Source of the DNA: a virus
Reading direction: 5' to 3' (one strand)
Virus record (IMG/VR): IMGVR_UViG_3300045988_109852
Span: 1-38,441 of that record
DNA length: 38,441 bases
The translations under genes were made by a program, and so were the position numbers. Shown here one piece after another: positions 2,513 through 38,441 of the stretch. A model generated the notes under the pieces. That model ran no database searches. It was not told the DNA's origin and was given only the letters and a program-made list of their open reading frames with translations. The stretch's first letter is position 1, and each line of letters begins with the position of its first letter.

Positions 2513-2663
2513 GTGGGTCCTTTCTGCGACTGTGCTGCCGTCGCCGCGATGTATTTTTCCTGCTGATTAAAGGCTAACCCGAAATATCTGTCCGTGCTCG
2601 GCGACTTTTTTGTGAACTTTTCACGAATCGTCAAACCCATTGATACGACAGGAGGTTCCGGCC

Positions 2664-2701
2664 TTGAAAAAAGCAAAACCGGAGCAGTTTCCCGCTCCGG
2701 T
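2664..2701 (-). terminator. Rho-independent terminator after terL
   Basis: On the minus strand, stem ACCGGAGC/GCTCCGGT (2678-2685 and 2694-2701) is followed by TTTGCTTTTTT. Confidence 0.6.
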
Positions 2702-2772
2702 CGAAAAATTTCTGTGAAATATTACTCGTAGTATAATAGCTGATCGCAGCGCACTCTCTCCCGCCTCGGTAA

Positions 2773-2822
2773 GGCTCCCTTGTGCAAAGGGAGCTGTCGG
2801 CGGAGCCGACTGAGGGATTGTC
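2773..2822 (+). repeat. Structured repeat, family A (copy A2)
   Basis: Same 50-nt element as A1, with the hairpin-2 loop changed to GGA. The terL stop codon (2824-2826) lies 1 nt from the element. Confidence 0.9.
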
Positions 2823-2823
2823 A

Positions 2824-4449
2824 TCACCACGCCTTTCTCGCTCTCTTCTGCCGCTTCATCTGCTCGATGAGCTTCTCCCGCGGCTTTTCCGGCTCCGTGA
2901 GCACCGTCATCCGCTGCTGATGCCGCACCGCGTAGGTGATCGCCGCGCCCATCACAAGGTCGTCGTGCTTCCCGGCGAGCGCCTCCGGCCGGTGGTCCTC
3001 GTTGTAGCAGAACGTCAGCATTTCTTCGAGCAGCTCCCGGTCGGTAAACCACTCCGGATGCGAGGAAAACACCTCCACCAGATTCGCAATGGCCCGCGGA
3101 CGGCTCTGCCGGTCGGTGCGAAAGCCGTAGCTCTTTTTCATCTGCCGGGTGTAGGTGTCCTCCCGCTCGCGGCTGTATTGATTCGGATACTCCGTCTCCT
3201 GCAGCTTCATCACCGGGTAGGTAGAGAAGTTCGTCTCGATGGCAACGAGCGCATCGTTGTAGAACCTCCCGAGTGCAAAGATCTGCCGGACGTATTCCGG
3301 CTCGCTGTATTTCTGCCGGAGCTTCGCCACGATCCTCCCGCTCACGTTGTCGATGACGATCGCCGTGAAGTAGTCCGAGCCCTCGCCCGCCGTGTCGCCG
3401 CCGAGCACATACGGAACGCCCTCCTCCGGCAGCTCGTAGAGCGTGATCGCGCCGGTCTCGCTCTCCGTCCACTCGCCGTCCGCAAACTCTCCGCGCCCGG
3501 CAGGGGATGGGAGCCGTTCCAGCCGGAGCACGATCTGCTCGTTGTCGAATACGCCCGTGCCGCTGTGGAGAAACGCCTCGCCGGGAGAGGCGGGATACTC
3601 CTGCCGGAACATGTCCAGGCTCCCGCCGCAGTTGTTCGCAATGCACCAGCGCCGCCATTGGAGCTGCTCTTCCGTCAGCTGATAGGCGGCCTTGAGATCC
3701 CGCTCCTCCGGCGTCCATTCCGTCCCCGGAACTACCGGCATCGAGTAGTCCGGGTTTTCAAACCACGCGAAGAACACCGGCTCAAAGTCGTTCTCCCCCG
3801 CAACGGCGGCGTCCCAGCGCTCCTTGAAGTCCTCAAAGCCGTTCGCCGTGCTCTCGATGACGACCATCGTGCCCGGCAGACTCGGCACGGCCTGTAAAAT
3901 GCCGGCAAGCGTGGAGGCTTTCCCGTCCGCGCCGTCCGGCCAGAAGGCGTACTCCGAAAGATGCACGCATTGCAGCGTGTCGCTTCGGCCGATGCCCCTG
4001 CCTCCCGCCGTCGCGCATCGGATCCGGGAGCGCAGTCCCGGCCTTGCCTCCCGCTCGCTGCGGAGCTTGGAGGGGTTCTCGAATACCAGCTCCTGCGCGT
4101 TCGAGGCGCGCAGCATCGGCTTCACCGGCGCGGGCAGCTCGTCGTAGAACAGCTTGCTCATCCGAAAAAGGTTCGCCGTCGCGTCCTCGCGGTGCGCAAC
4201 GATCAGCGCGTTTACGTTCTTTCGCGTCGCGCAGGCATGGAAGATGAGGCCCTCCGTCAGTGTGGAAAAGCCGAGCTGCCTGGCCTTGAGAATGATGAGC
4301 CGCACGGGCTTCCCCGCGTCCTGCTGCCGCTTCGCCACGGCGTAGAGCTTTCGCTGCGCGTCGTTCAGCCGGAACGGCACGACCGTCCCGCTCTTCGTCT
4401 TGATCTTGAGACAGCTCTCGATGTAGTCCATTGCTATGCACGGGTTCAT
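2824..4449 (-). CDS. terL: Terminase large subunit
   Basis: 541 aa. It has a Walker-A-like KARQLGFST motif and the nuclease-domain style typical of phage TerL. It overlaps terS by 4 nt. Confidence 0.9.
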   Translation of the reverse strand: MNPCIAMDYIESCLKIKTKSGTVVPFRLNDAQRKLYAVAKRQQDAGKPVRLIILKARQLGFSTLTEGLIFHACATRKNVNALIVAHREDATANLFRMSKLFYDELPAPVKPMLRASNAQELVFENPSKLRSEREARPGLRSRIRCATAGGRGIGRSDTLQCVHLSEYAFWPDGADGKASTLAGILQAVPSLPGTMVVIESTANGFEDFKERWDAAVAGENDFEPVFFAWFENPDYSMPVVPGTEWTPEERDLKAAYQLTEEQLQWRRWCIANNCGGSLDMFRQEYPASPGEAFLHSGTGVFDNEQIVLRLERLPSPAGRGEFADGEWTESETGAITLYELPEEGVPYVLGGDTAGEGSDYFTAIVIDNVSGRIVAKLRQKYSEPEYVRQIFALGRFYNDALVAIETNFSTYPVMKLQETEYPNQYSREREDTYTRQMKKSYGFRTDRQSRPRAIANLVEVFSSHPEWFTDRELLEEMLTFCYNEDHRPEALAGKHDDLVMGAAITYAVRHQQRMTVLTEPEKPREKLIEQMKRQKRARKAW

Positions 4450-4889
4450 AGCATCGAGCCCTCCTGCCTTGCGAGCCAGTCCTCAATGCTCTCGGCGGCG
4501 CTCTGCTCACCCTCGGCAAAGTTCATGTGCTCCGTCAGCTCATGCAGCGCCCGGATCGCGCTGTTGGCGTCGAGCAGCTTCTCGCCGCAGCGCTCGTCCT
4601 TGCGTGTCTCGGGGTTCCATCGGTAGGCAGGCACTTTCTCCATGCAGCTCTCCACGACCTCCACGAGCCGCCGCCCGATCCACTCCTTGGAGATCCCCAT
4701 CTCGTCAAAGAGCTTCTTTTCCAGCTTCCGCCGGTACTCGATCACTCCCTGCGTCTCCAACAGCTTCGACGCCCGCGAAGCGGCGCTCCTCGCGCTGTAC
4801 CCCGCGGCGATGGCGGCGTCCGTAGCGTCGCCGGAGCGCAGATACTCCTGCACGAACTTCTTCTGCCGCGGTGTGATATCTCTTGCCAT
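4446..4889 (-). CDS. terS: Terminase small subunit
   Basis: The N-terminus MARDITPRQKKFVQEYLRSGDATDAAIAAGYS is the classic Terminase_2 HTH. The gene lies directly upstream of terL. Confidence 0.85.
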   Translation of the reverse strand: MARDITPRQKKFVQEYLRSGDATDAAIAAGYSARSAASRASKLLETQGVIEYRRKLEKKLFDEMGISKEWIGRRLVEVVESCMEKVPAYRWNPETRKDERCGEKLLDANSAIRALHELTEHMNFAEGEQSAAESIEDWLARQEGSML

Positions 4890-4901
4890 GTCTCTCCCTC
4901 C

Positions 4902-5177
4902 TCACATCGGCCAGTACGCCGCGTAGAAATTCCGGCGCAGCTCGTATATCCGGCCCACCGGCACGCTCGTCTCGCGGCTCACCGTCTCCGGCGATTTGTT
5001 TTTCAAGAGAACGGCGATGAGGGCACGCCCCTCGGCCTGCCCCTTCGCTGTGCTCTCTATCGTTTTCCGGATCTCGTCCTGCGCCGGCGGCGGCAGATTC
5101 CGGTACGCCTCCAAGAAAGCATGTACGATCCGCTGCTGCCATACCGCCCCGCAGCCCTTCATCGGCCGGAATTTCAA
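4902..5177 (-). CDS. Putative late-gene transcriptional regulator (small HTH, sigma region-4/ArpU-RinA-like position)
   Basis: 91 aa with an HTH-like segment ETVSRETSVPVGRIYELRRNF. It sits immediately upstream of terS. Confidence 0.45.
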   Translation of the reverse strand: MKFRPMKGCGAVWQQRIVHAFLEAYRNLPPPAQDEIRKTIESTAKGQAEGRALIAVLLKNKSPETVSRETSVPVGRIYELRRNFYAAYWPM

Positions 5178-6046
5178 TTCTTCGCCTCCTTTTTAGCCTC
5201 CCTTGTGCAAAGGGAGGTGGCGGCATCGCCGCCTTCCTCCCCCTTGCCTCCCCTGACAGGGGAGGTGGCAGCCGGAGGCTGACGGAGGGGTTTTCCGCCG
5301 ACATTTGTTTTATCAGAACGCGCAGAGACGCGCGCGCCGTTGCCTTTTCTTTCCTTCTCCTTTCGGACGTAGCGGACGTAGGCGGAATAAAACCCGCTCT
5401 CCTCGTCCCGCGTCTCGGTCTGCTCTCGGATGGATGCGTCCTTCGGGAGCTTCATCCTGCTGTGCGCGTAAACCGGCACCGGCTCGGTGTATACCGGCTT
5501 TTCCAGCCCGCGGCTCGGATGGAATTTCTTTTTGCCTTCCTCGCCCTTGGCGTTGGAGATCATGTACCGGGCAACGCCGGTATAGTCCCCGCTCCCGTCC
5601 AGCCGGCGGTAGGTAACGCCCTGCTCCGGCCAAAGCGTGCATATGCTCTCATAGTCCATCGCCGGGAGGACGATGTGGAAATGCGGCCGAGCGTTCCCGA
5701 TCTCATTTTTCCGGCCATGCGAGTAGACGTACTTGAGATTCGCTCCTTGTTCCTTCCGATACAACGCGCGGAGCTTGCGCAAAAACCGGTCGAACACCGC
5801 TTGAGCGTCATCCCAGGATATTTCTCCCTCCCCGAAGGAGAGCGTGAGCCATACGTCGCCCGTGCCGAAATTGCAGTTGAGCGTGCGGGCAAGACTCTTC
5901 ACGGCGTTGATCTCGTTTCGCATGATCTTTCGGATGCTGGACTTCTTGGCTCTCGTTCCCCGCCGAACGCGCTGGCCGCCTCTCTTTGTCGGCATCCAGA
6001 CGCGGCGGATCTCCTCGGTCCTGCCGGAGATGATCTTGTATTCCAT
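5174..6046 (-). CDS. HUH rolling-circle replication initiator-like protein
   Basis: Three motifs occur in order: VWLTLSF (motif 1), RPHFHIVLP (HUH motif 2) and GVARYMISNAKG (catalytic Tyr motif 3). The preferred start is the ATG at 6046, with AAGGAG 11 nt upstream; the ORF track starts at a GTG at 6058. The last ~35 codons are translations of repeats B1 and A7. Confidence 0.7.
   Translation of the reverse strand: MEYKIISGRTEEIRRVWMPTKRGGQRVRRGTRAKKSSIRKIMRNEINAVKSLARTLNCNFGTGDVWLTLSFGEGEISWDDAQAVFDRFLRKLRALYRKEQGANLKYVYSHGRKNEIGNARPHFHIVLPAMDYESICTLWPEQGVTYRRLDGSGDYTGVARYMISNAKGEEGKKKFHPSRGLEKPVYTEPVPVYAHSRMKLPKDASIREQTETRDEESGFYSAYVRYVRKEKERKGNGARVSARSDKTNVGGKPLRQPPAATSPVRGGKGEEGGDAATSLCTREAKKEAKN
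5196..5233 (+). repeat. Structured repeat, family A variant (copy A7, lacks purine tail)
   Basis: GCCTCCCTTGTGCAAAGGGAGGTGGCGGCATCGCCGCC. Both stems carry compensatory changes relative to A1: CCTCCCTT/AAGGGAGG and GGCGGC/GCCGCC. Confidence 0.8.
5243..5292 (+). repeat. Structured repeat, family B (copy B1)
   Basis: CTTGCCTCCCCTGACAGGGGAGGTGGCAGCCGGAGGCTGACGGAGGGGTT. It lies inside the 3' end of the HUH gene. Confidence 0.85.
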
Positions 6047-6156
6047 GATGGCAAACACTCCTTTTTCCTCCCTGGTCGTAAAGTTATCCTTTTAACAAGT
6101 CCGTAAAAATTCGCGCACGCGCACGCGAATTATATAAAGTATCGCCGGTCTTTTCT

Positions 6157-6208
6157 CCTGCCTCCCTCCCCGAGGGGAGGTGTCAGCCAAAGGCTGACGG
6201 AGGGAGTC
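6157..6208 (+). repeat. Structured repeat, family B (copy B2)
   Basis: CCTGCCTCCCTCCCCGAGGGGAGGTGTCAGCCAAAGGCTGACGGAGGGAGTC, upstream of the HUH gene. It shares the extended flank TTTCCGCC..CATTT with B1. Confidence 0.85.
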
Positions 6209-6278
6209 TTTCCGCCCTCATTTCCGCCGCCGTGCTTAGGCAGCAGAAATCAAACCGGAAATTTCCTCGATTTTCCTC

Positions 6279-6307
6279 TTGCAAATGTCACGGTATCGTG
6301 ATATAAT
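6279..6307 (+). promoter_or_regulatory. Near-consensus sigma-70-type promoter for the DUF4160/DUF2442 cassette
   Basis: TTGCAA (6279-6284), a 17-nt spacer ending in TG-A, then TATAAT (6302-6307). The RBS AAAGGAGG is at 6321-6328. Confidence 0.7.
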
Positions 6308-6335
6308 ATAGTCAGAAACGAAAGGAGGCAATATC

Positions 6336-6590
6336 ATGCCGGTAATCGCCCGATTTTATGGGATCATCGTGAAGATGTATCTTCTCGGCGGGGAGCATAA
6401 TCCCCCGCACGTCCACGTTCTCTATGGGGAAAAGAACGGTGTCCTTGATCTCAATACGCTCACGTTCAAAGAATGCGACCTCCCCGCAAAGGCCCGCGCG
6501 CTCGTCCTCGAATGGGCTTCCGCGTACCAGCAGGAGCTTCTCACCATGTGGAAAACGCAGTCGTTCCGCGTGCTCCCGCCTCTGGAATGA
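6336..6590 (+). CDS. DUF4160 family protein
   Basis: MPVIARFYGIIVKMYLLGGEHNPPHVHVLYGE matches the DUF4160 signature (F.GI.I.MY....H.PPH.H). It follows a strong RBS and promoter. Confidence 0.75.
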   Translation: MPVIARFYGIIVKMYLLGGEHNPPHVHVLYGEKNGVLDLNTLTFKECDLPAKARALVLEWASAYQQELLTMWKTQSFRVLPPLE

Positions 6591-6621: not shown

Positions 6622-7056
6622 ATGTTTCACAAGCTCAAATCCGTCACGCCGCTTCCGGACTATACGCTCCTCGCCAATTTCTCGGACGGCTCCGTGAAAT
6701 CCTACGACTTCCGCCCGCTCCTCGACCGCATGGAGGTCTACGCCCCGCTGCGGGAGTCTCCCGCGTTCTGGGCGTCCGCCGCCGTCGATCCCGGCGGCTA
6801 CGGCGTTTCGTGGTCAGACGAGATCGACATCTCTGCCGAGGAGCTGTGGGAGCACGGCGTCGCCGCCGAAAGCCCGTTCTCCGGTCTTCTCTCGTTCGCC
6901 GACGCCACCGGCCTATGGGGTCTCAGCGAAAGCGCCCTGCGCAAAGCCGTGGAATACCGCAAGCTCACCGTCGGCGTCGATGTCCAGAAATTCGGCAAGC
7001 AATGGGTCGTCACCCGCTCCGCCATGGAACGCGAGTACGGCCGTCCCTCTCATTAA
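6622..7056 (+). CDS. DUF2442 domain protein with C-terminal HTH-like extension
   Basis: The N-terminus VTPLPDYTLLANFSDGSVKSYDFRPLL..GGYGVSWSDEIDISAEELW is DUF2442-like. The C-terminal segment GLWGLSESALRKAVEYRKL..WVVTRSAMEREYG resembles an excisionase/MerR-type HTH. Confidence 0.65.
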   Translation: MFHKLKSVTPLPDYTLLANFSDGSVKSYDFRPLLDRMEVYAPLRESPAFWASAAVDPGGYGVSWSDEIDISAEELWEHGVAAESPFSGLLSFADATGLWGLSESALRKAVEYRKLTVGVDVQKFGKQWVVTRSAMEREYGRPSH

Positions 7057-8607: not shown

Positions 8608-10230
8608 TTATTTATTGTTGGATTCTTCAAAATGGTGTTTTGTAACAGCGATTGGAAATTCTTCAATCTCCGAAGCCCATCTTGCGGTTCCCGCTCCGTG
8701 GATGCTTTCCCAGCAGAGTGGGAAGCCGCCGATCCCATCAAACAGGCTGCCGAGCGTCGCGCCATCCGGAAGATACGACGCCATTCTCCCGAACATCCAG
8801 CGCCAGAACGGGAGCGCGATGGAGTTGCCGAGCGCCTTGTACTTCGGCGCGTCCGCTTCCTTGTGTACGCGGCCTTTCTCGTCCGTCCAGTCGCCGATGC
8901 CGACCCATCCGTCCGGATACCCTTGAAGCCGTGTACATTCCAATGGGGTAAGCCGACGAACGACCATGCGCTCCATAACGTGCTGTTGTGTCCCGCCGCT
9001 CGCATGAGCTTTCAACGTGCCGAATTGGTCTATGTAAGCGTTTTTCTCGTCGTCGATGCTTATTACAAGATCCGTAGCGTCTTTGGAATCTCGCTGTTTG
9101 CAGGAAGAAACGATTTCCGACTCTTTATAGTCTCCAAACCCCTGCATCGAAAACGTACAGGGTACCTGGTTTCCGCCGGTCCCCATTCTCGCTTGCAATG
9201 ATGGGGACGACACATCTCTGCTCTCGCGTATCACGTCATTTGCGTGGCTCATGTCCAGGATGCACACACCGCCTTGATTTTTGCTTGGGTCTGGCGGAGA
9301 TGTATCAAGCGTTTTTGCTACGTCAACCGATCTGCACCCGCTGTTCGGGTTTTTACTTTTCATCGAATTTGACGCAAGGGAATCGAAACTAAAAGCCATG
9401 ACCGCCGGTCGGTCAATCGTATTGAGGGTGTAGCTTATATCCTCTTTCCATCCCTTGCCATTGCATCCGGCCGTATCGGCACGGTCTATTCCGTTGCCCT
9501 GTAAGCAGAAGATTTGAGCTCCAGAACAGTTTTCAGCACCTCCGGCAGTTTCTTCCCGCGCTGTTCCGCCCTCCGGAGGATCCCGGCGCACGCTTTCGGC
9601 GTCAGGTTGTACTTCGGGTCGGGACGCTCTTCCAGAATCTGCGATAACTTCGTGGGCACCGGGATCTTCGGCTCCTCCGAAACGTTCAAAGAGGATATCC
9701 CCTGCAGTGGATCCGTTAAAATCGACCACCATGCTGATACGCCGTCTGCGCTGGGGAACTCCCCAGTATTGTGCGTCGTGCGTTCTCCATGCGACACTCC
9801 ATCCGTCGCCGAGCATTCCTCCGGCTTTCGTCCACTTCTGCTTGTCCGGCAGTCGAGGAAGAGAAAACCCCGGTTCTGCGATGCGTACAGCTTCTTCCAG
9901 CACGGCTCCGAAATCTCCGAATCCGTCCTTGAAGTTGCTGCTGAATGCGCCTGGCACATTTTCCCAGACCATATACCGAGGTCGAACAAGCTCACCTGTC
10001 CGTCCAATGCTTCTGTCATGCTCTCTCATCTCCTTGACGATCCGTATCTGTTCCATGTACAAGCCGGAACGAGCACCGGCAAGTCCTGCACGTTTCCCTG
10101 CGATGCTCAAGTCCTGGCAAGGACTCCCGCCGGTGATGCACCAGACGGGCTCAACTTCTGCGCCATTGATCTTTGTGATGTCTCCTAAATGCTTCAAGGT
10201 CTTTTTCTCCGGCCTGCCATCTTCAGGCAT
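8608..10230 (-). CDS. DNA (cytosine-5) methyltransferase with circularly permuted motif order
   Basis: Motifs occur in this order: GDITKI (III), GGSPCQDLS (IV), WENVPGAF (VI), QYWGVPQRRRR (VIII), a variable region, RRLTPLECTRLQGYPDGW (IX), ALGNSIALP (X). Motifs LGSLFDGIGGF (I) and WASEIEEFP (II) follow only at the C-terminus. Confidence 0.85.
   Translation of the reverse strand: MPEDGRPEKKTLKHLGDITKINGAEVEPVWCITGGSPCQDLSIAGKRAGLAGARSGLYMEQIRIVKEMREHDRSIGRTGELVRPRYMVWENVPGAFSSNFKDGFGDFGAVLEEAVRIAEPGFSLPRLPDKQKWTKAGGMLGDGWSVAWRTHDAQYWGVPQRRRRISMVVDFNGSTAGDILFERFGGAEDPGAHEVIADSGRASRPEVQPDAESVRRDPPEGGTAREETAGGAENCSGAQIFCLQGNGIDRADTAGCNGKGWKEDISYTLNTIDRPAVMAFSFDSLASNSMKSKNPNSGCRSVDVAKTLDTSPPDPSKNQGGVCILDMSHANDVIRESRDVSSPSLQARMGTGGNQVPCTFSMQGFGDYKESEIVSSCKQRDSKDATDLVISIDDEKNAYIDQFGTLKAHASGGTQQHVMERMVVRRLTPLECTRLQGYPDGWVGIGDWTDEKGRVHKEADAPKYKALGNSIALPFWRWMFGRMASYLPDGATLGSLFDGIGGFPLCWESIHGAGTARWASEIEEFPIAVTKHHFEESNNK
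9486..10019 (-). CDS. Nested alternative-frame ORF inside the methyltransferase gene (candidate overlapping gene)
   Basis: 177 codons open, with AAGGAG 10 nt upstream of the ATG. Composition is protein-like, including the helical motif KLSQILEERPDPKYNLTPKACAGILRRAEQRGKKLPEVLKTVLE. Third-position G+C is much higher in this frame than in the MTase frame across 9522-9675. Confidence 0.35.
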   Translation of the reverse strand: MTEALDGQVSLFDLGIWSGKMCQAHSAATSRTDSEISEPCWKKLYASQNRGFLFLDCRTSRSGRKPEECSATDGVSHGERTTHNTGEFPSADGVSAWWSILTDPLQGISSLNVSEEPKIPVPTKLSQILEERPDPKYNLTPKACAGILRRAEQRGKKLPEVLKTVLELKSSAYRATE

Positions 10231-13322: not shown

Positions 13323-13375
13323 GGCTCCCTTGTGCAAAGGGAGCTGTCAGCCGTCAGGCTGACTGAGGGATTGTC
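13323..13375 (+). repeat. Structured repeat, family A (copy A4)
   Basis: Hairpin 2 is replaced by GTCAGCC-GTCA-GGCTGAC, a compensated change. It lies 7 nt from the stop of the 13383-13622 gene. Confidence 0.9.
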
Positions 13376-13382
13376 CTCTCCC

Positions 13383-13622
13383 CTATTTCGTCGCTTCCAA
13401 AATCCGCGCCGCCAGATCGTCCACGCGCCACTTCTTCTTTGTGCCGCGTTGGAAGCACGGCAGCCCGTCCAGAAACTCCGCGACGATCCTCCGGTTCTCA
13501 ATTCCGAGATACCGCCCGATCTGCGTCATGTCGGCGTATCGCGCGCCGCCCGTGCAGTGCTCCGTGAGATCTGCCTCGATCTTCCTCTGCTCCGCCGGAA
13601 CGGCCAGCCGTACTCTCGGCAT
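13383..13622 (-). CDS. Hypothetical DNA-binding-like protein
   Basis: 79-aa ORF. Its start is coupled to the upstream small gene (TAAATG). Confidence 0.5.
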   Translation of the reverse strand: MPRVRLAVPAEQRKIEADLTEHCTGGARYADMTQIGRYLGIENRRIVAEFLDGLPCFQRGTKKKWRVDDLAARILEATK

Positions 13623-13769
13623 TTACCCCGCCTCCTTCTCGTCCTTTTGCTTGCTCTGCATATACTCAACAGCCAGAGCCGCACCGTCGATCTGCTGCAC
13701 AAACTTCTCCTGCAGCTCCGGCGGCAGCGCGCACACCTTCTCTGCCAGCGCCTTTTCCTTTTCGCTCAT
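13623..13769 (-). CDS. Small acidic protein (48 aa, below the ORF-track cutoff)
   Basis: ATG at 13769 with TAAGGAGGTGAGGAC upstream. Translation is MSEKEKALAEKVCALPPELQEKFVQQIDGAALAVEYMQSKQKDEKEAG. Confidence 0.55.
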   Translation of the reverse strand: MSEKEKALAEKVCALPPELQEKFVQQIDGAALAVEYMQSKQKDEKEAG

Positions 13770-13781
13770 GTCCTCACCTCC

Positions 13782-13973
13782 TTACATGCACACCAGCAGC
13801 ACCGCCGCCACCGCCGCGGCTGCTGCCGCTATTGCCCAGACGAGAAGGACGATCTCCTTCTCCAGCGCCGCCGTGCGCTTCTCCAGGGCGTCCGTGCGCC
13901 GTTTCAGCTCCTCTATCTCCGGGTTCTGAAACAGCCGCATCGAAATTCCCAACGCCGAATTACCATCGCCCAT
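13782..13973 (-). CDS. Small coiled-coil protein with C-terminal TM anchor
   Basis: ATG at 13973 with TAGGAGG 7 nt upstream. The C-terminus is IVLLVWAIAAAAAAVAAVLLVCM. Confidence 0.5.
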   Translation of the reverse strand: MGDGNSALGISMRLFQNPEIEELKRRTDALEKRTAALEKEIVLLVWAIAAAAAAVAAVLLVCM

Positions 13974-13984
13974 CGTTTTTCCTC

Positions 13985-14266
13985 CTAAAACAGTTTGATT
14001 ATCAACCCGACCACCAGCGTCGCAACGACTCCGAGGGTCACATACAGAACCATTACCGAGGTTTTGAGTTTTTCCACAGCCTTGATCGCATCGAGCGTCT
14101 TTCTCTGGTAGTAATACGCTGTCGGATCCCACCCCTTCGGGAAGTCCTTCAGCTTGTCCGCGATGCCGGTACAGCCTCCGGCAAGCTTGCCGGACGTGAT
14201 GCCGTCTTTCCGTATCTTCGCGTCCGCCTGAAGGATCCGCCACGCGAGGTTTGTCAATATCTTCAT
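13985..14266 (-). CDS. Hypothetical protein with C-terminal TM helix; first gene of the long minus-strand operon
   Basis: 93-aa ORF. The C-terminal segment VMVLYVTLGVVATLVVGLIIKLF is a predicted transmembrane helix. Confidence 0.5.
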   Translation of the reverse strand: MKILTNLAWRILQADAKIRKDGITSGKLAGGCTGIADKLKDFPKGWDPTAYYYQRKTLDAIKAVEKLKTSVMVLYVTLGVVATLVVGLIIKLF

Positions 14267-16066: not shown

Positions 16067-16089
16067 GTCCTCGAAAGGAGGTGCTGCCT

Positions 16090-16479
16090 ATGTCCGTTGG
16101 CAGTCGTATCAAAGAGCTGCGCAATTCTCTTGACCTCACGCAGCAGAAATTCGCCGACCGTCTCGGCATCCAGCGCGGAATTATCGGAAAATATGAAGTT
16201 GATGTTTCCGCCCCATCCGATGCGGTGATCTCGCTGATCTGCCGCGTATTCAATGTGCGGGAAGCCTGGCTCCGCGATGGCACCGGCGAGATGCTCGAGG
16301 TAAAGCCCCGTGCCGAGGAGCTCGGCGAGCTTGTCCGTAAGCTTCTGGCCGACCGGCCGGAGTCCTTCCGCTCCCGCCTCATCACCAGTCTCCTGCGCTT
16401 CGAGCCCGATTCCCCCGAATGGCAGATCCTTGAGAACATCTATAATTCCATCGCAGCCGAAAAAGAGAGCAGGGAATAA
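16090..16479 (+). CDS. CI-like XRE-family repressor
   Basis: MSVGSRIKELRNSLDLTQQKFADRLGIQRGIIGKYEVDVSAPSDAVISLICRVFNVREAWL is a classic XRE HTH. AAAGGAGG lies 8 nt upstream of the ATG at 16090. Confidence 0.8.
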   Translation: MSVGSRIKELRNSLDLTQQKFADRLGIQRGIIGKYEVDVSAPSDAVISLICRVFNVREAWLRDGTGEMLEVKPRAEELGELVRKLLADRPESFRSRLITSLLRFEPDSPEWQILENIYNSIAAEKESRE

Positions 16480-17541: not shown

Positions 17542-18060
17542 ATGAACGAAATGGACGCGTTGAAAAACCGCTGGAGAGAGGCGAAGAGCACGCGCACGTT
17601 CCCGGATATTGCCGAAGCCGCCGATCTGTCGCCGAGCACCGTGGAGTACGCCTTTTCCCCAAAATCCACGAACCCCTGCATTGATACGGTCGTGCGCATC
17701 TCCCGGGAGCTGCACGTCTCGCTCGACGATACCTTCGGCATCCTCTCGCCGAGCAATCGTTCGGAGACGGAGCTTGCCCGGCAGGACGCCTCCCACTGGA
17801 AGGCGCGGTATGAAGCAGCCGTCCGGGATATCGAATATCTCCGCACCGTCATTCTGATGCTCGGCGTGTTCTTCTTTGTCGTTGTCATCTGGTGTGTTAC
17901 GCTGGATCTTCGGTGCGCGGATATCGGCTTCTTCCGCGGCGAGTGGAGCTTCGGCGCCGTGTTCTCAATTGCCTGTATTTCGATCGCCGCGCTTATGGTC
18001 GTCCTCGTCATCGTCCGCGTCTGCCGCCGCCACCGGCAGCGCAAAGGAGAAAATGAATGA
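17542..18060 (+). CDS. Membrane-anchored HTH protein
   Basis: The start at 17542 has GAAAGGACGGAG upstream. The N-terminal XRE-like segment is TFPDIAEAADLSPSTVEYAFSPKSTNPCIDTVVRISRELHVSLDDTFG. Two C-terminal TM helices follow. The stop overlaps the int start (ATGA). Confidence 0.6.
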   Translation: MNEMDALKNRWREAKSTRTFPDIAEAADLSPSTVEYAFSPKSTNPCIDTVVRISRELHVSLDDTFGILSPSNRSETELARQDASHWKARYEAAVRDIEYLRTVILMLGVFFFVVVIWCVTLDLRCADIGFFRGEWSFGAVFSIACISIAALMVVLVIVRVCRRHRQRKGENE

Positions 18061-19205
18061 AGTGCTGCAACTGCTCTCGCGAGATCCCGGAAAACTCGCT
18101 GTACTGCAACTGGTGCGGAAAGAAGCAGCTCCGCGAAAAGGAAAAGAAGCTCAAGATCCCCGCTCCCCGGCAGCTCCCCTCCGGCAGCTGGACGGTGCAG
18201 CTCCGCCGCGAGGGCGTGAACGTCACCGAACCCACGGAGGAAGCATGCCGCACCAAGGCCCTCGCCATCCGCGCCGGGTTTCTGGAAGCGGAGAAGGCGC
18301 TCCCCCGGCTCACGCTCGGGCAGCTCCTTGATAAGTATCTGGAAGACCGTCCCATGCTTTCGCCGTCTACCAGGCGAAGCTATCAATGCATCCGCAACAG
18401 CGCTTTTCCCGGCTGCATGGATAAGGATATCCGCTCTATAAACTGGCCGCGCGCCGTTGCGTCAGAATCACAGCGCGTCGCAAAGAAAACCCTGAAAAAT
18501 GAGCTCGGCTTTGTTGCCGCCGCCTACAAGGAGCAGAAGATACCGTTTGACCCCGTGGATCTCGGCGTCGTCCCAAAGGCCGATACTCCGTGGCTGGACT
18601 ATGCGCAGATACTAACCTTCGTGGACGCGATCCGCGACACTCCCGTCGAGCTTCCCGCGCTCCTTGCGCTGCACTCTCTCCGCCGCTCGGAGATCTTCGC
18701 GCTCCGCCCGGAGGACATCGATCTCAAAGCCGAGACGATCTCCGTCTCCGGCGCTACGGTCTATACATCCTCCGCCGAATGGATACGCCGGGAAGAGAAC
18801 AAGAGCGCCCGCTCGCAGCGCGTCGTCCCCATCGTGATACCCCGGCTTCTGGAAATCCTGCAAGACCACAACGGTGATATATGCCCGCTCGGCGACGGCG
18901 TGCGGCGGCAGATCAACCGGATCTGTGCCGCAAACGATCTCCCGGAGGTCGGCCTGCACGGTCTGCGCCGCAGCTTCGCTTCCCTCGCCTATCATCTCGG
19001 ATGGTCGGAGGAAGAAACCATGCGGCACGGCGGCTGGAGCGACTGGAAAACCGTCCATGATTTTTATCTTCGTCTTTCGGTAAAAGATCTTTCCAAGGCC
19101 GCGAAGAAAATGCGCCGGTTCTATTCCGTTAGTAAATCCGTTAGTAAAAAAGGGTCAAAAAACGCTCCAAAACGTACATCTGCCATACCATCCAGCGCAG
19201 AATAA
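18057..19205 (+). CDS. int: Tyrosine integrase with N-terminal zinc ribbon
   Basis: MKCCNCSREIPENSLYCNWCGKK is the zinc ribbon. The catalytic region is LHSLRRSEIFAL...HGLRRSFASLAYHLGWSEEETMRHGGWSDWKTVHDFYLR (R...HxxR...Y). Confidence 0.9.
   Translation: MKCCNCSREIPENSLYCNWCGKKQLREKEKKLKIPAPRQLPSGSWTVQLRREGVNVTEPTEEACRTKALAIRAGFLEAEKALPRLTLGQLLDKYLEDRPMLSPSTRRSYQCIRNSAFPGCMDKDIRSINWPRAVASESQRVAKKTLKNELGFVAAAYKEQKIPFDPVDLGVVPKADTPWLDYAQILTFVDAIRDTPVELPALLALHSLRRSEIFALRPEDIDLKAETISVSGATVYTSSAEWIRREENKSARSQRVVPIVIPRLLEILQDHNGDICPLGDGVRRQINRICAANDLPEVGLHGLRRSFASLAYHLGWSEEETMRHGGWSDWKTVHDFYLRLSVKDLSKAAKKMRRFYSVSKSVSKKGSKNAPKRTSAIPSSAE
19127..19148 (+). repeat. Tandem CCGTTAGTAAA repeats (candidate integrase arm-type sites)
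   Basis: CCGTTAGTAAA occurs twice, at 19127-19137 region and 19138-19148, inside the int 3' end. A third copy, CGTTAGTAAAA, is at 19347-19357 on the other side of the tRNA-like core. Confidence 0.5.
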
Positions 19206-38312: not shown

Positions 38313-38351
38313 ATTCGTTTCCTTTCTCCCTCATATGCTCCCGCTCCCCCC

Positions 38352-38402
38352 CTTGCCTCCCCTAACAGGGGAGGTGTCAGCCGGAGGCTGACGGAGGGGT
38401 TC
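38352..38402 (+). repeat. Structured repeat, family B (copy B4)
   Basis: Same as B3 except hairpin 2 is GTCAGCC-GGA-GGCTGAC. Confidence 0.9.
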
Positions 38403-38441
38403 GGCTCCCTTGTGCAAAGGGAGCTGTCGGCGCAGCCGACT
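38403..38441 (+). repeat. Structured repeat, family A (copy A6, truncated by the window end; equals A1 on circularisation)
   Basis: 39 nt identical to nt 1-39. Confidence 0.9.

Follow-up and report, generated by a model that had tools for sequence, protein, structure and literature searches.

The closest described relatives of the Rep protein analysed here are the replication initiators of the PF23343 (REP_ORF2-G2P)/PHROG 3584 family, which are ~240-265 aa in length and are, like Rep, encoded where the early module of a tailed temperate phage ends; more distant relatives are Ff gpII, Spiroplasma SpV1 ORF2 and the microvirus gpA-type initiators. The gene A protein of P2 and 186 is an HUH initiator of rolling-circle-type replication in temperate double-stranded DNA phages, and in P2 it carries a Y-x3-Y tyrosine pair. 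HUH enzymes act on single-stranded hairpins, and in RAYT/REPIN systems and with IS200/IS605 TnpA the gene of an HUH enzyme is found beside dispersed short hairpin repeats, an arrangement shared by the locus described below.

CGTC-tagged REPs are defined by an unpaired CGTC tag, an 8-9-bp stem, a 4-5-nt loop and a CCA tail, and no transposase dedicated to them is known (Di Nocera et al. 2013; PMC3733652). Class II triplex motifs, with BoxC/TMECO as precedent, are described by Holder et al. 2015 (PMC4666352), and in vitro such motifs can act as a block to polymerases; their loci are reported to turn over fast in E. coli. PIT elements (Hoyne and Maher 2000) and BoxC/TMECO are built from the same three blocks as the repeats described here, the third block mirroring the purine block, and are likewise G/C-rich, intergenic, present in multiple copies and located at loci that are hypervariable between close relatives.

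The window analysed is a stretch of 38,441 nt comprising positions 1-38,441 of IMG/VR record IMGVR_UViG_3300045988_109852, a temperate tailed phage of ~38 kb of gut Oscillospirales (gut Clostridia) whose other genes include those for an integrase, a repressor, TerS, TerL and a methyltransferase. A near-identity search of INPHARED with 25 kb of the window returned no related cultured phage. In related loci rep occupies a constant slot between the early genes and terS; Rep homologues in L138-L141 lie in the same slot ahead of the terminase genes, and one of these loci is an integrated prophage in an Intestinimonas MAG. GC skew is negative throughout the window, a signal confounded by the coding strand, and did not locate the origin. 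Features of the rep gene and its downstream neighbour are as follows.

5174-6046, minus strand: rep, predicted 290-aa HUH replication initiator (Pfam, PHROG, alignment, AF2, BFVD)
5351-6046, minus strand: conserved core of Rep, ~aa 1-232 (alignment)
Within 5174-6046, minus strand: Rep tail, aa 233-290, unconserved and partly encoded by repeats
5834-5854, minus strand: motif I, VWLTLSF, aa 65-71 (44-sequence alignment)
5663-5689, minus strand: HUH motif, RPHFHIVLP, aa 120-128 (H122 and H124 invariant in the alignment)
5543-5578, minus strand: motif III, GVARYMISNAKG, aa 157-168 (Y161 invariant, N165 almost invariant)
4902-5177, minus strand: small downstream gene, its TTG start overlapping the rep stop (TTGA)

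A preliminary description of this DNA had reported an open reading frame at 5174-6046 carrying the three rolling-circle motifs in order and had proposed an HUH Rep-like product; the first claim was confirmed and the second supported. The frame encodes 290 aa, with a second possible start at a GTG at 6058, and the order motif I, HUH, Tyr is accompanied by a single conserved tyrosine. H122, H124 and Y161 were invariant across an alignment of 44 sequences (homologues 33-76% identical), and Y161 is the presumed catalytic tyrosine. In the profile searches that had been suggested, PF23343 matched aa 65-162 at 31.4 bits (cut-off 27.8) and was the sole Pfam match at E<=1, neither a Y1 transposase (PF01797) nor Phage_GPA being found at that threshold; PHROG 3584, "replication initiation protein", matched aa 1-239 with an E-value of 2.2e-46, and NCBIfam contained no model matching Rep. 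The AF2 model had an overall pLDDT of 81.7, with residues 235-290 below 50. A fold search of BFVD with Rep returned ORF2/G2P proteins, including some from Siphoviridae, at E-values of 1e-17 to 1e-8, and microvirus replication initiators at ~1e-5. In the PDB, the sequence search gave no match and the fold search gave nothing at an E-value of 0.001 or better; HUH Rep domains were weak fold matches (best E 0.013), several nanovirus, circovirus and AAV Rep entries having Foldseek probabilities of 0.82-0.87, and were intermixed with unrelated folds at similar E-values. Clostridium phages phiSM101 and PhiS63 and Butyrivibrio phage Arawn have genes of ~30% identity that carry the annotation replication initiation protein, and the family comprises 3,622 representatives at E<=1e-3.

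Profile match, motif order and predicted fold, all of which Rep has in common with PF23343/PHROG 3584, identify it as an HUH rolling-circle-type replication initiator of that family, with an HUH-type fold as predicted by the AF2 model and its BFVD matches; within this large family of phage Rep proteins it is ordinary. It differs from the PF23343 proteins of cultured phages in being only ~30% identical to any of them, and from its PF23343 relatives in carrying an additional C-terminal extension of 30-45 aa that is disordered and repeat-encoded. The preliminary description had offered a conventional, P2 A-like initiator with coincidental repeat insertions as one of three readings. That reading is the one favoured here, with the amendment that Rep, while probably working like the P2/186 A protein, does not belong to that family: Phage_GPA was absent at E<=1, and Rep has one conserved tyrosine rather than the pair.

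The repeats around rep were delimited by element scanning and folding. Their reported layout, with B2 upstream of the gene and B1 plus the A variant at its 3' end, all on the same strand, was upheld, the element cores being as listed.

5247-5291, plus strand: B1, complete triplex-type element (element scan, folding)
5247-5265, plus strand: B1 hairpin 1 (CCTCCCCT/AGGGGAGG)
5267-5283, plus strand: B1 spacer hairpin
5284-5291, plus strand: B1 mirror third segment, GGAGGGGT
5197-5246, plus strand: A variant, truncated (hairpin 1 at 5197-5217, spacer hairpin at 5219-5233)
6161-6206, plus strand: B2, element of a divergent subfamily (spacer hairpin at 6182-6198)
6199-6206, plus strand: B2 third segment, GGAGGGAG

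All repeat copies of the window lie on the plus strand, and eight are complete, while 20 shuffles each gave none. B1 shares 96% identity with the copy at 38348-38401 and only 70% with B2, a divergence that places B1 and B2 in different subfamilies. The A variant of the window has lost the third segment, which the alleles of L004 and L012-L017 retain intact (GGAGGGAT). In relatives the arms of B2 read CCTCCCTC/GAGGGAGG; compared with most of them, the window copy has 1 nt inserted. B1 and the A variant lie within the 3' end of the rep frame, where they encode aa 252-284 of the AF2-disordered tail; insertions at this site would be tolerated because the frame stays open to the same stop and gains only a disordered tail. 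The ribosome-binding site of the 4902-5177 gene (AAGGAGG) follows the A variant. Three of the four allele types keep the TTGA overlap and L002 does not; this in-frame retention was not read as selection, because of the L002 exception and because the independent events are too few. Such repeats contaminate protein predictions with peptides like ..PLTGEV.. and ..PFAQGSL...

In each element a pyrimidine/purine hairpin is followed by a second, variable hairpin and then by a segment mirroring the purine arm, and the order of pyrimidine, purine and reverse-Hoogsteen blocks on one strand was found in the eight complete window copies and in 230 others. The third block matches the purine block in antiparallel orientation (G.GC, A/T.AT). 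In a position-defined test on the 230 elements the mirror score was 0.892, compared with 0.680 +/- 0.008 for permuted tails, and 146 mirrors were perfect compared with 24.6 for permuted tails; at least 10 variant arms were accompanied by compensating mirror tails. Pairing of the third segment with the 5' arm in Watson-Crick fashion, as a direct repeat, was considered and rejected: perfect matches numbered 257 for the mirror and 19 for the direct relation, and the direct-repeat reading needs a register shift between subfamilies and leaves the S/K relation unexplained. ViennaRNA folding gives the two hairpins alone, with an unpaired tail. The covariation argues strongly that the repeats follow the rule of a purine-motif intrastrand triplex of the BoxC/TMECO kind with a hairpin as spacer, and they would be expected to form such a triplex in vivo.

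They depart from TMECO in the second loop, which is TG plus a variable stem-loop of 13-40 nt rather than 3 nt; the ITxF search covered loops of 1-6 nt only, so that these repeats would have been missed. They also differ in their hosts, which are gut Clostridia and their phages, those of PIT/TMECO being Enterobacteria or Cyanobacteria, and some Sphingomonas copies with a 3-nt loop resemble the classical triplex type. The spacer hairpin, read on the complementary strand, resembles the CGTC-REPs in having the form CGTC-stem-loop-stem-GCCA (in B1, CGTC AGCC TCC GGCT GCCA), and the two groups also share a location mostly 3' of genes, the frequency of inverted dimers in bacteria, the lack of a known dedicated transposase and Sphingomonas among their hosts. 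In contrast to the published CGTC-REPs, stems here range over 4-10 bp rather than 8-9 bp and the GTC of the "tag" is often paired; the CGTC-REP definition includes no flanking triplex arms, and Firmicutes are unreported among CGTC-REP hosts. Beyond general REP and triplex papers, no published description of these repeats in Firmicutes was found. An Rfam E-value scan of 5100-6350 gave sub-threshold matches only (ylbH at 24.6 bits, cut-off 50, and miRNA models), and the repeats are covered by no known RNA family in the Rfam scans. Over the whole window, the gathering-threshold Rfam scan returned only a hammerhead ribozyme, located elsewhere than the repeats.

Occupancy of the two sites beside rep was then compared among relatives, the co-occurrence check that had been called for, and the distributions of gene and repeats proved independent. 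The upstream site showed at least three alleles, the 3' site four. B1 is absent from L004, L005, L006, L010-L017, L275 and L280; upstream, no element is present in L014/L271, L275 and L280, and L010/L011 have one of A type. L275 and L280 thus keep rep with both sites empty, and gene order is unchanged in relatives with one repeat or none. No element was found within 6 kb of rep in 58 of 78 Rep loci, corresponding to nine of the 12 Rep lineages, and the cultured phages with a Rep homologue have no such repeats. Conversely, a survey of loci extending up to ~20 kb around each match found elements at more than 120 loci in viruses and more than 120 in bacteria among the matches listed, the bacterial ones from Oscillospiraceae (Clostridia) to Sphingomonas (Sphingomonadaceae), and a search of 818 kb around bacterial element loci found no Rep homologue. 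On the strength of the empty sites, the element-free Rep loci and the Rep-free bacterial copies, the repeats come and go independently of rep, and they represent a REP-like intergenic element that is widespread.

Most probably, Rep is a conventional rolling-circle-type initiator, and the nearby repeats are independent copies of a widespread triplex-type element. By analogy with the PF23343/PHROG 3584 family, Rep would nick one strand through Y161 at an origin beside its own gene, with H122 and H124 holding the metal, and the nick would start rolling-circle (sigma) synthesis after induction. The plus strand of the repeats would adopt a class II purine-motif intrastrand triplex, and the complementary strand, here the sense of the mRNA, would take the class IV pyrimidine-motif form. 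Elements would settle in permissive intergenic phage DNA, the two ends of rep among such places, with fast turnover, Rep neither requiring nor spreading them.

The preliminary description had also suggested that one of the repeats is the double-strand origin of the phage. That suggestion is not supported by the relatives, in which the upstream site is empty or holds an element of another type, and a different feature upstream of the gene is conserved together with rep instead.

6108-6131, unstranded: CG palindrome, AATTCGCGCACGCGCACGCGAATT, ~60-85 nt upstream of the rep ATG

This palindrome adjoins a TATAAT-like box and is identical in 17 of 17 close relatives. Blocks of ACGCGCGTGCGCGCGT and TTTCTT..GGAC..CTAAcTT lie upstream of rep even at 26-54% Rep identity. 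A CGCG-N1-4-CGCG motif at -160..-30 was present at 55 of 75 Rep loci and in 2.5% of background windows, its triple form occurring once in the window, and a CG palindrome precedes rep in 11 of the 12 Rep lineages. From this conservation the palindrome is a candidate for the origin (nick or binding region) or for a rep operator, and the origin or operator most likely comprises the palindrome with its TTTCTT/ACGG flank, at ~6060-6140, rather than a repeat.

The upstream element (B2 and its counterparts) may nevertheless serve as an accessory of the rolling-circle origin, in sso-like priming or in fork pausing or termination, with the other co-oriented copies serving the same role along the displaced strand; we consider this unlikely. 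In RCR plasmids the sso, which is functional in a single orientation, lies directly upstream of the dso, a position and orientation that the upstream element would match. The window cluster, L284, L328/L145, L149, L161 and L175/L177 have elements at 100-200 nt upstream of rep, on the opposite strand and just upstream of the palindrome, and the order element(s), CG palindrome, rep is found in lineages only 26-45% identical; in L284 and L328 the sole perfect element in 7-12.7 kb sits there. This recurrence exceeds random placement and could reflect a tie to the origin. Copies were co-oriented in 26 of 26 related and 20 of 24 unrelated phage contigs and at seven of 20 bacterial loci, and a reading of the elements as neutral passengers alone leaves the phage co-orientation unexplained. 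Orientation relative to genes, by crude gene calls, showed no consistent bias either in phages ('--' 30 vs '++' 24) or in bacteria ('++' 26 vs '--' 18). An element acting as an orientation-dependent single-stranded DNA signal of rolling-circle replication (sso-like priming, or pausing/termination), repeated along the displaced strand, would account for both the placement by the palindrome and the phage-only co-orientation, and the capacity of triplex motifs to block polymerases in vitro (PMC4666352) is compatible with it; as a general function of the elements it is, all the same, quite unlikely. Set against such a role are the nine element-free Rep lineages and the empty upstream sites of L275, L280 and L014/L271, whose origin regions are otherwise identical. 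A-type, B-type and hybrid elements are, moreover, interchangeable at the upstream site across relatives, and bacterial chromosomes carry elements in both orientations, often as inverted pairs. The region upstream of rep is also a rare long non-coding stretch, so that tolerance may explain the recurrence, and several of the supporting loci were found via the repeat itself.

A further proposal of the preliminary description, that Rep nicks the repeat hairpins as RAYT or IS200/IS605 TnpA enzymes do and thereby accounts for their dispersal and strand bias, is highly improbable. It was suggested by the action of HUH enzymes on single-stranded hairpins and by the one-strand repeats that flank the gene on either side, and no dedicated transposase is known for REPs of the CGTC type, to which the spacer hairpin is similar (PMC3733652). 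Rep, however, is not a Y1 transposase, PF23343 being its only Pfam match at E<=1, and the distributions of gene and repeat are largely disjoint: bacterial elements are widespread with no Rep in the 818 kb of sampled flanks, most Rep phages have no elements and relatives keep rep beside empty sites. Element ends show no conserved cleavage motif, and a GTAG tag was absent from them in 148 aligned copies. Co-orientation is also found in phage contigs unrelated to this one. B1 and B2, which belong to different subfamilies, had been linked through an extended flank thought to be shared by these two copies only.

5295-5306, minus strand: "shared flank" beside B1, AAATGTCGGCGG, native phage sequence
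6212-6223, minus strand: "shared flank" beside B2, AAATGAGGGCGG, native phage sequence
5300-5359, unstranded: 60-nt block with a GCGCGCGTCTCTGCGCG core, 100% conserved DNA, encoding disordered Rep tail

The privacy of this flank was borne out in part: exact matches to TTTCCGCC..CATTT (reverse complement AAATGNNGGCGG) occur only at 5295-5306 and 6212-6223, but GGCTGACGGAGGG is also present in the copy at 38386 and is not limited to B1 and B2. Its bases are kept at the empty 3' sites of L005, L275 and L280 and at the empty upstream sites of L014/L271, L275 and L280; because it is present at empty sites, the flank is native phage DNA lying outside the repeat. It was also considered as a target-site motif, and this weak, post hoc reading was rejected: AAATGNNGGCGG has six matches at <=1 mismatch where 4.6 would be expected, the other copies are without the motif, and the two flanks are 2 nt out of register with the repeat.

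Scarcely credible is a mobile 1-kb rep cassette delimited by B1 and B2 and moving between phages in an IS91/IS200-like or integron-like manner, for which the same-orientation repeats on both sides of the gene and a mosaic Rep core (69-97% identity between otherwise near-identical flanks) might be cited, since rep always has the same syntenic position, flanked by the early genes and terS, with no second context, the mosaic breakpoints fall inside the rep coding region, away from the repeats, and gene order is the same whether relatives carry one repeat or none. Loci whose Rep cores share only 69% identity still have an identical 5300-5359 block, L138 has a similar block that is non-coding, and no significant fold was found for 5300-5359; the block may act as a second element in cis or mark a boundary of recombination.

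For a RAYT-like link between the HUH protein and the repeats the outcome is mostly deflationary. The double-hairpin repeats themselves are very common in gut Clostridia and their phages and obey the mirror rule of purine-motif triplexes; with them the BoxC/TMECO class gains a phylum and a layout that are new to it, and they supply hundreds of natural examples of covariation. The CG palindrome provides a concrete, testable origin candidate for the PF23343/PHROG 3584 Rep family. Were the elements indeed origin-associated strand signals, this would be the first function for bacterial triplex repeats.

The open reading frame rep (5174-6046, minus strand; GTG at 6058 is an alternative start) encodes a 290-aa product, Rep, with three motifs in order:

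Rep residues 65-71, VWLTLSF, motif I
Rep residues 120-128, RPHFHIVLP, HUH motif
Rep residues 157-168, GVARYMISNAKG, third motif

The repeat copies around rep were found as the preliminary description had placed them, all on the plus strand, with B2 (6161-6206) about 110 nt upstream of the rep ATG and B1 (5247-5291) plus an A-type copy (5197-5246) within the final 100 nt of the ORF. Its reading of Rep as an HUH protein was also borne out, in the replication-type form. Rep is a new member of the large, already named phage Rep family PF23343, with putative function, because Pfam, PHROG, invariant residues, fold matches and annotated homologues agree. It scores 31.4 bits against PF23343 (REP_ORF2-G2P; gathering score 27.8) from motif I to motif III and matches PHROG 3584 'replication initiation protein' over residues 1-239 (E 2e-46); H122, H124 and Y161 do not vary among 44 aligned homologues (33-76% identity), and genes about 30% identical in Clostridium phages phiSM101 and PhiS63 and Butyrivibrio phage Arawn carry a replication initiation protein annotation. 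A profile search returned 3,622 cluster representatives at E <= 1e-3. AlphaFold2 modelled the core with confidence (pLDDT 81.7) and left the tail disordered from residue 235 onward; among predicted structures the model matched Siphoviridae 'Replication-associated protein ORF2/G2P' (E 1e-17 to 1e-8) and microvirus replication initiators (E about 1e-5). Solved structures were matched weakly, at E >= 0.013 and never at E <= 0.001. HUH Rep domains of nanovirus, geminivirus, circovirus and AAV recurred there, several with probabilities of 0.82-0.87, and unrelated folds reached like E-values in the same search. The PDB searched with the Rep sequence gave no match. Assignment to Y1 transposases or RAYTs, or to the P2 A family, was rejected because PF23343 was the sole Pfam match at E <= 1.

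The window is a temperate tailed phage encoding a 2871-aa tail protein and the following genes:

2824-4449, minus strand, TerL
4446-4889, minus strand, TerS
8608-10230, minus strand, methyltransferase
16081-16479, plus strand, repressor
18057-19205, plus strand, integrase

Here rep closes the early genes and is followed by a small ORF and the terminase genes, a slot also held by Rep homologues of 41-54% identity, including one in a prophage integrated in an Intestinimonas MAG. Adjoining rep is a divergently transcribed pair, 6336-6590(+), encoding a DhiT-like toxin (DUF4160; NCBIfam NF048015, 86 bits, under the cut-off of 100), and 6622-7056(+), encoding its partner, which matches PHROG 2655 'excisionase'; together they probably form a toxin-antitoxin module, and a strong sigma-70-like promoter lies at 6279-6307. 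A type II hammerhead ribozyme (Rfam RF02276, 10208-10273, minus strand; 45.9 bits, gathering score 37, E 2e-06) sits directly upstream of the methyltransferase gene. Bases 1-39 are identical to 38403-38441, within an A copy, so the contig is either circular or broken at a repeat.

It had been proposed that Rep recognises or nicks the repeats and thereby disperses them. Rep loci were fetched via Rep itself (78 loci, 12 clusters at 60% identity), and 58 of them, in 9 clusters, had no perfect element within 6 kb. No Rep homologue was found in the 818 kb searched around 162 bacterial element copies, and in INPHARED the 8 repeat-carrying and 12 Rep-homologue records did not overlap. Within these locus-sized samples the repeats are to a substantial degree abundant without a Rep homologue. 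Both rep-flanking sites are empty in two further relatives, L275 (76% identity) and L280 (73%). The layout first observed is real; the proposed link between the HUH protein and the repeats is unsupported. The alternative of a conventional initiator with coincidental repeat insertions held as to an initiator with independent repeats and failed as to P2-A-like membership.

Seventeen close relatives from IMG/VR were aligned with the window, and four alleles were found at the rep 3' site:

B plus A: window, L001, L003, L007-L009
A only, third segment intact: L004, L012-L017
B only: L002
None: L005, L006, L010, L011

The rep ORF reads through any insert at this site, so residues 252-284 in the window, within the disordered tail, are repeat-encoded; three of the four allele types share one TGA stop, and the TTG start of the downstream gene overlaps it. 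The upstream site holds a B2 subfamily copy in most relatives, an A-type copy in L010 and L011 and a hybrid in L006, and is empty in L014. The 'extended flank' earlier credited to B1 and B2 is phage DNA outside the repeat, because it is kept at empty sites (AAATGTCGGCGG at the 3' site, AAATGAGGGCGG upstream). B1 shares 96% identity with the copy at 38348-38401 and only 70% with B2.

All A and B copies in the window lie on the plus strand, most genes on the minus strand. A structure-aware scan of the window found 8 complete elements, against 0 in 20 shuffles. The layout conserved among copies is s-CTCCCy-TG-loop-A-rGGGAG-s', TG, stem-loop, k-GAGGGr-TTGT, the stem-loop differing in sequence in nearly every copy. 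Over 148 copies, the bases flanking the hairpin-1 arms (before the 5' arm, after the 3' arm) pair as C-G in 74 and G-C in 72, and y-r pairing within the arms is C-G in 85 and T-A in 59. The third segment is the mirror image of the purine arm, because it tracks the 3' arm by identity, not complementarity (r/r GG 86, AA 60; s'/k C-T 73, G-G 70). Variant arms come with matching third segments:

Arms GCCCCCTT..AAGGGGGC, third segment TGGGGGAT
Arms GCTCTCCC..GGGAGAGC, third segment TGAGAGGG
Arms CCTCTCCT..AGGAGAGG, third segment GGAGAGGT
Arms CCCTCCTT..AAGGAGGG, third segment GGGAGGAT
Arms CCTTCTCC..GGAGAAGG, third segment GGATGAGG
Sphingomonas arms CCCCTCCCT..AGGGAGGGG-cag-, third segment GGGGTGGGT

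When 230 elements were picked by hairpin 1 and adjacent hairpin 2 only and the next 8 nt scored, the mirror rule scored 0.892 with 146 perfect, against 0.680 +/- 0.008 and 24.6 perfect (maximum 37) for permuted tails. Purine-motif triplexes place G opposite G-C and A or T opposite A-T on an antiparallel third strand, and Hoyne and Maher, like Holder et al. (PMC4666352), class the block order pyrimidine-purine-third strand as 'class II'. The elements fit a predicted class II purine-motif intrastrand triplex with a hairpin as spacer; their complementary strand, which in this phage is the mRNA sense, is laid out as a class IV pyrimidine motif, a form that can occur in RNA too (PMC4666352). ViennaRNA with DNA parameters folded the two hairpins (z -3.4 to -5.2) and left the tail free, as expected of a program that cannot model triplexes. 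No Rfam family matched the repeats. The second loop is an entire hairpin here, whereas it is 3 nt in BoxC/TMECO and the ITxF search admits loops of 1-6 nt only; on its opposite strand the spacer hairpin looks like the CGTC-tagged REPs described in alpha-proteobacteria, repeats with no known transposase (PMC3733652). The repeats thus appear to be an intrastrand triplex motif of known kind, in which the hairpin spacer is what is new.

A hairpin-1 pattern search of one-genome-per-species bacterial contigs and IMG/VR viral contigs gave at least 120 matches in each collection. Bacterial carriers among the matches listed include Oscillospiraceae, Acutalibacteraceae, Ruminococcus, Faecalibacterium and many Clostridia MAGs, and, outside Clostridia, Sphingomonas, Sphingobium, Stakelama and Longimonas. 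One Clostridia MAG holds nine same-strand copies in 1.6 kb (L028, 4122-5713), another MAG seven on both strands in 0.8 kb (L051, 1718-2514). In Sphingomonas and other non-Clostridia (L060, L084, L117, L130, L137), classical short-loop triplex motifs such as CCCCTCCCT-GGA-AGGGAGGGG-cag-GGGGTGGGT lie beside the hairpin-spaced type, so both layouts coexist in some genomes. Spurious long ORFs cross repeats in the window (2621-3718(-), 4705-5304(-), 13332-13988(+) and others), with recurring peptides ..PFAQGSL.., ..PLTGEV.. and ..ELSAQPTEGL..; repeats translated in this way probably give rise to false 'hypothetical proteins' in high-GC Clostridia.

The suggestion that a repeat serves as the origin is less attractive than a second element upstream of rep:

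6108-6131, CG palindrome, AATTCGCGCACGCGCACGCGAATT

It is preceded by TATATAAT, followed by TTTTTACGGAC...TAACTTTACGAC, and identical across all close relatives. It is recognisable, as ACGCGCGTGCGCGCGT then TTTCTT..GGAC..CTAAcTT, upstream of rep genes only 26-54% identical (L276, L284, L286, L299, L310, L328, L161, L177). CGCG-N1-4-CGCG occurs at -160 to -30 in 55 of 75 Rep loci (11 of 12 clusters) and in 2.5% of control windows, and its triple form occurs once in the window. We infer a Rep-associated cis element, a candidate origin or operator, and a better origin candidate than the repeats for a Rep family with none mapped. A 60-nt block at 5300-5359, in the region coding for the disordered tail, stays 100% identical in DNA between phages whose Rep cores share only 69% identity; L138 has a similar GC-alternating block, non-coding, after rep.

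Elements in Rep phages tend to lie 100-200 nt upstream of rep, on the opposite strand and just outside the palindrome (window cluster, L284, L328/L145 with three in tandem, L149, L161, L175/L177), and in L284 and L328 this is the only perfect one in 7-12.7 kb. When viral (L142-L259) and bacterial (L018-L137) loci were compared, neighbours more than 200 nt apart shared an orientation in 20 of 24 cases among phage contigs not related to the window versus 7 of 20 in bacterial loci, where inverted pairs spaced about 90-100 nt are frequent (e.g. L070, L076, L087, L092). Judged from crude gene calls, the elements keep no fixed orientation to genes from phage to phage. Insertion tolerance in scarce long non-coding DNA, with selection against inverted repeats in small genomes, could produce this pattern; a replication-linked role of the elements we regard as improbable.

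The picture we hold to be quite probable is that Rep nicks near the palindrome and the A and B elements are passengers. By analogy with the family, the HUH histidines would hold metal, Y161 would make the nick, and the nick would prime rolling-circle synthesis. The elements would belong to a widespread triplex-capable REP-like family, inserting into, or being exchanged at, permissive sites with quick turnover, in agreement with E. coli, where triplex-motif loci are reported to be hypervariable. Of most interest are the architecture of the repeats and the placement of the elements, co-oriented and close to the candidate origin.
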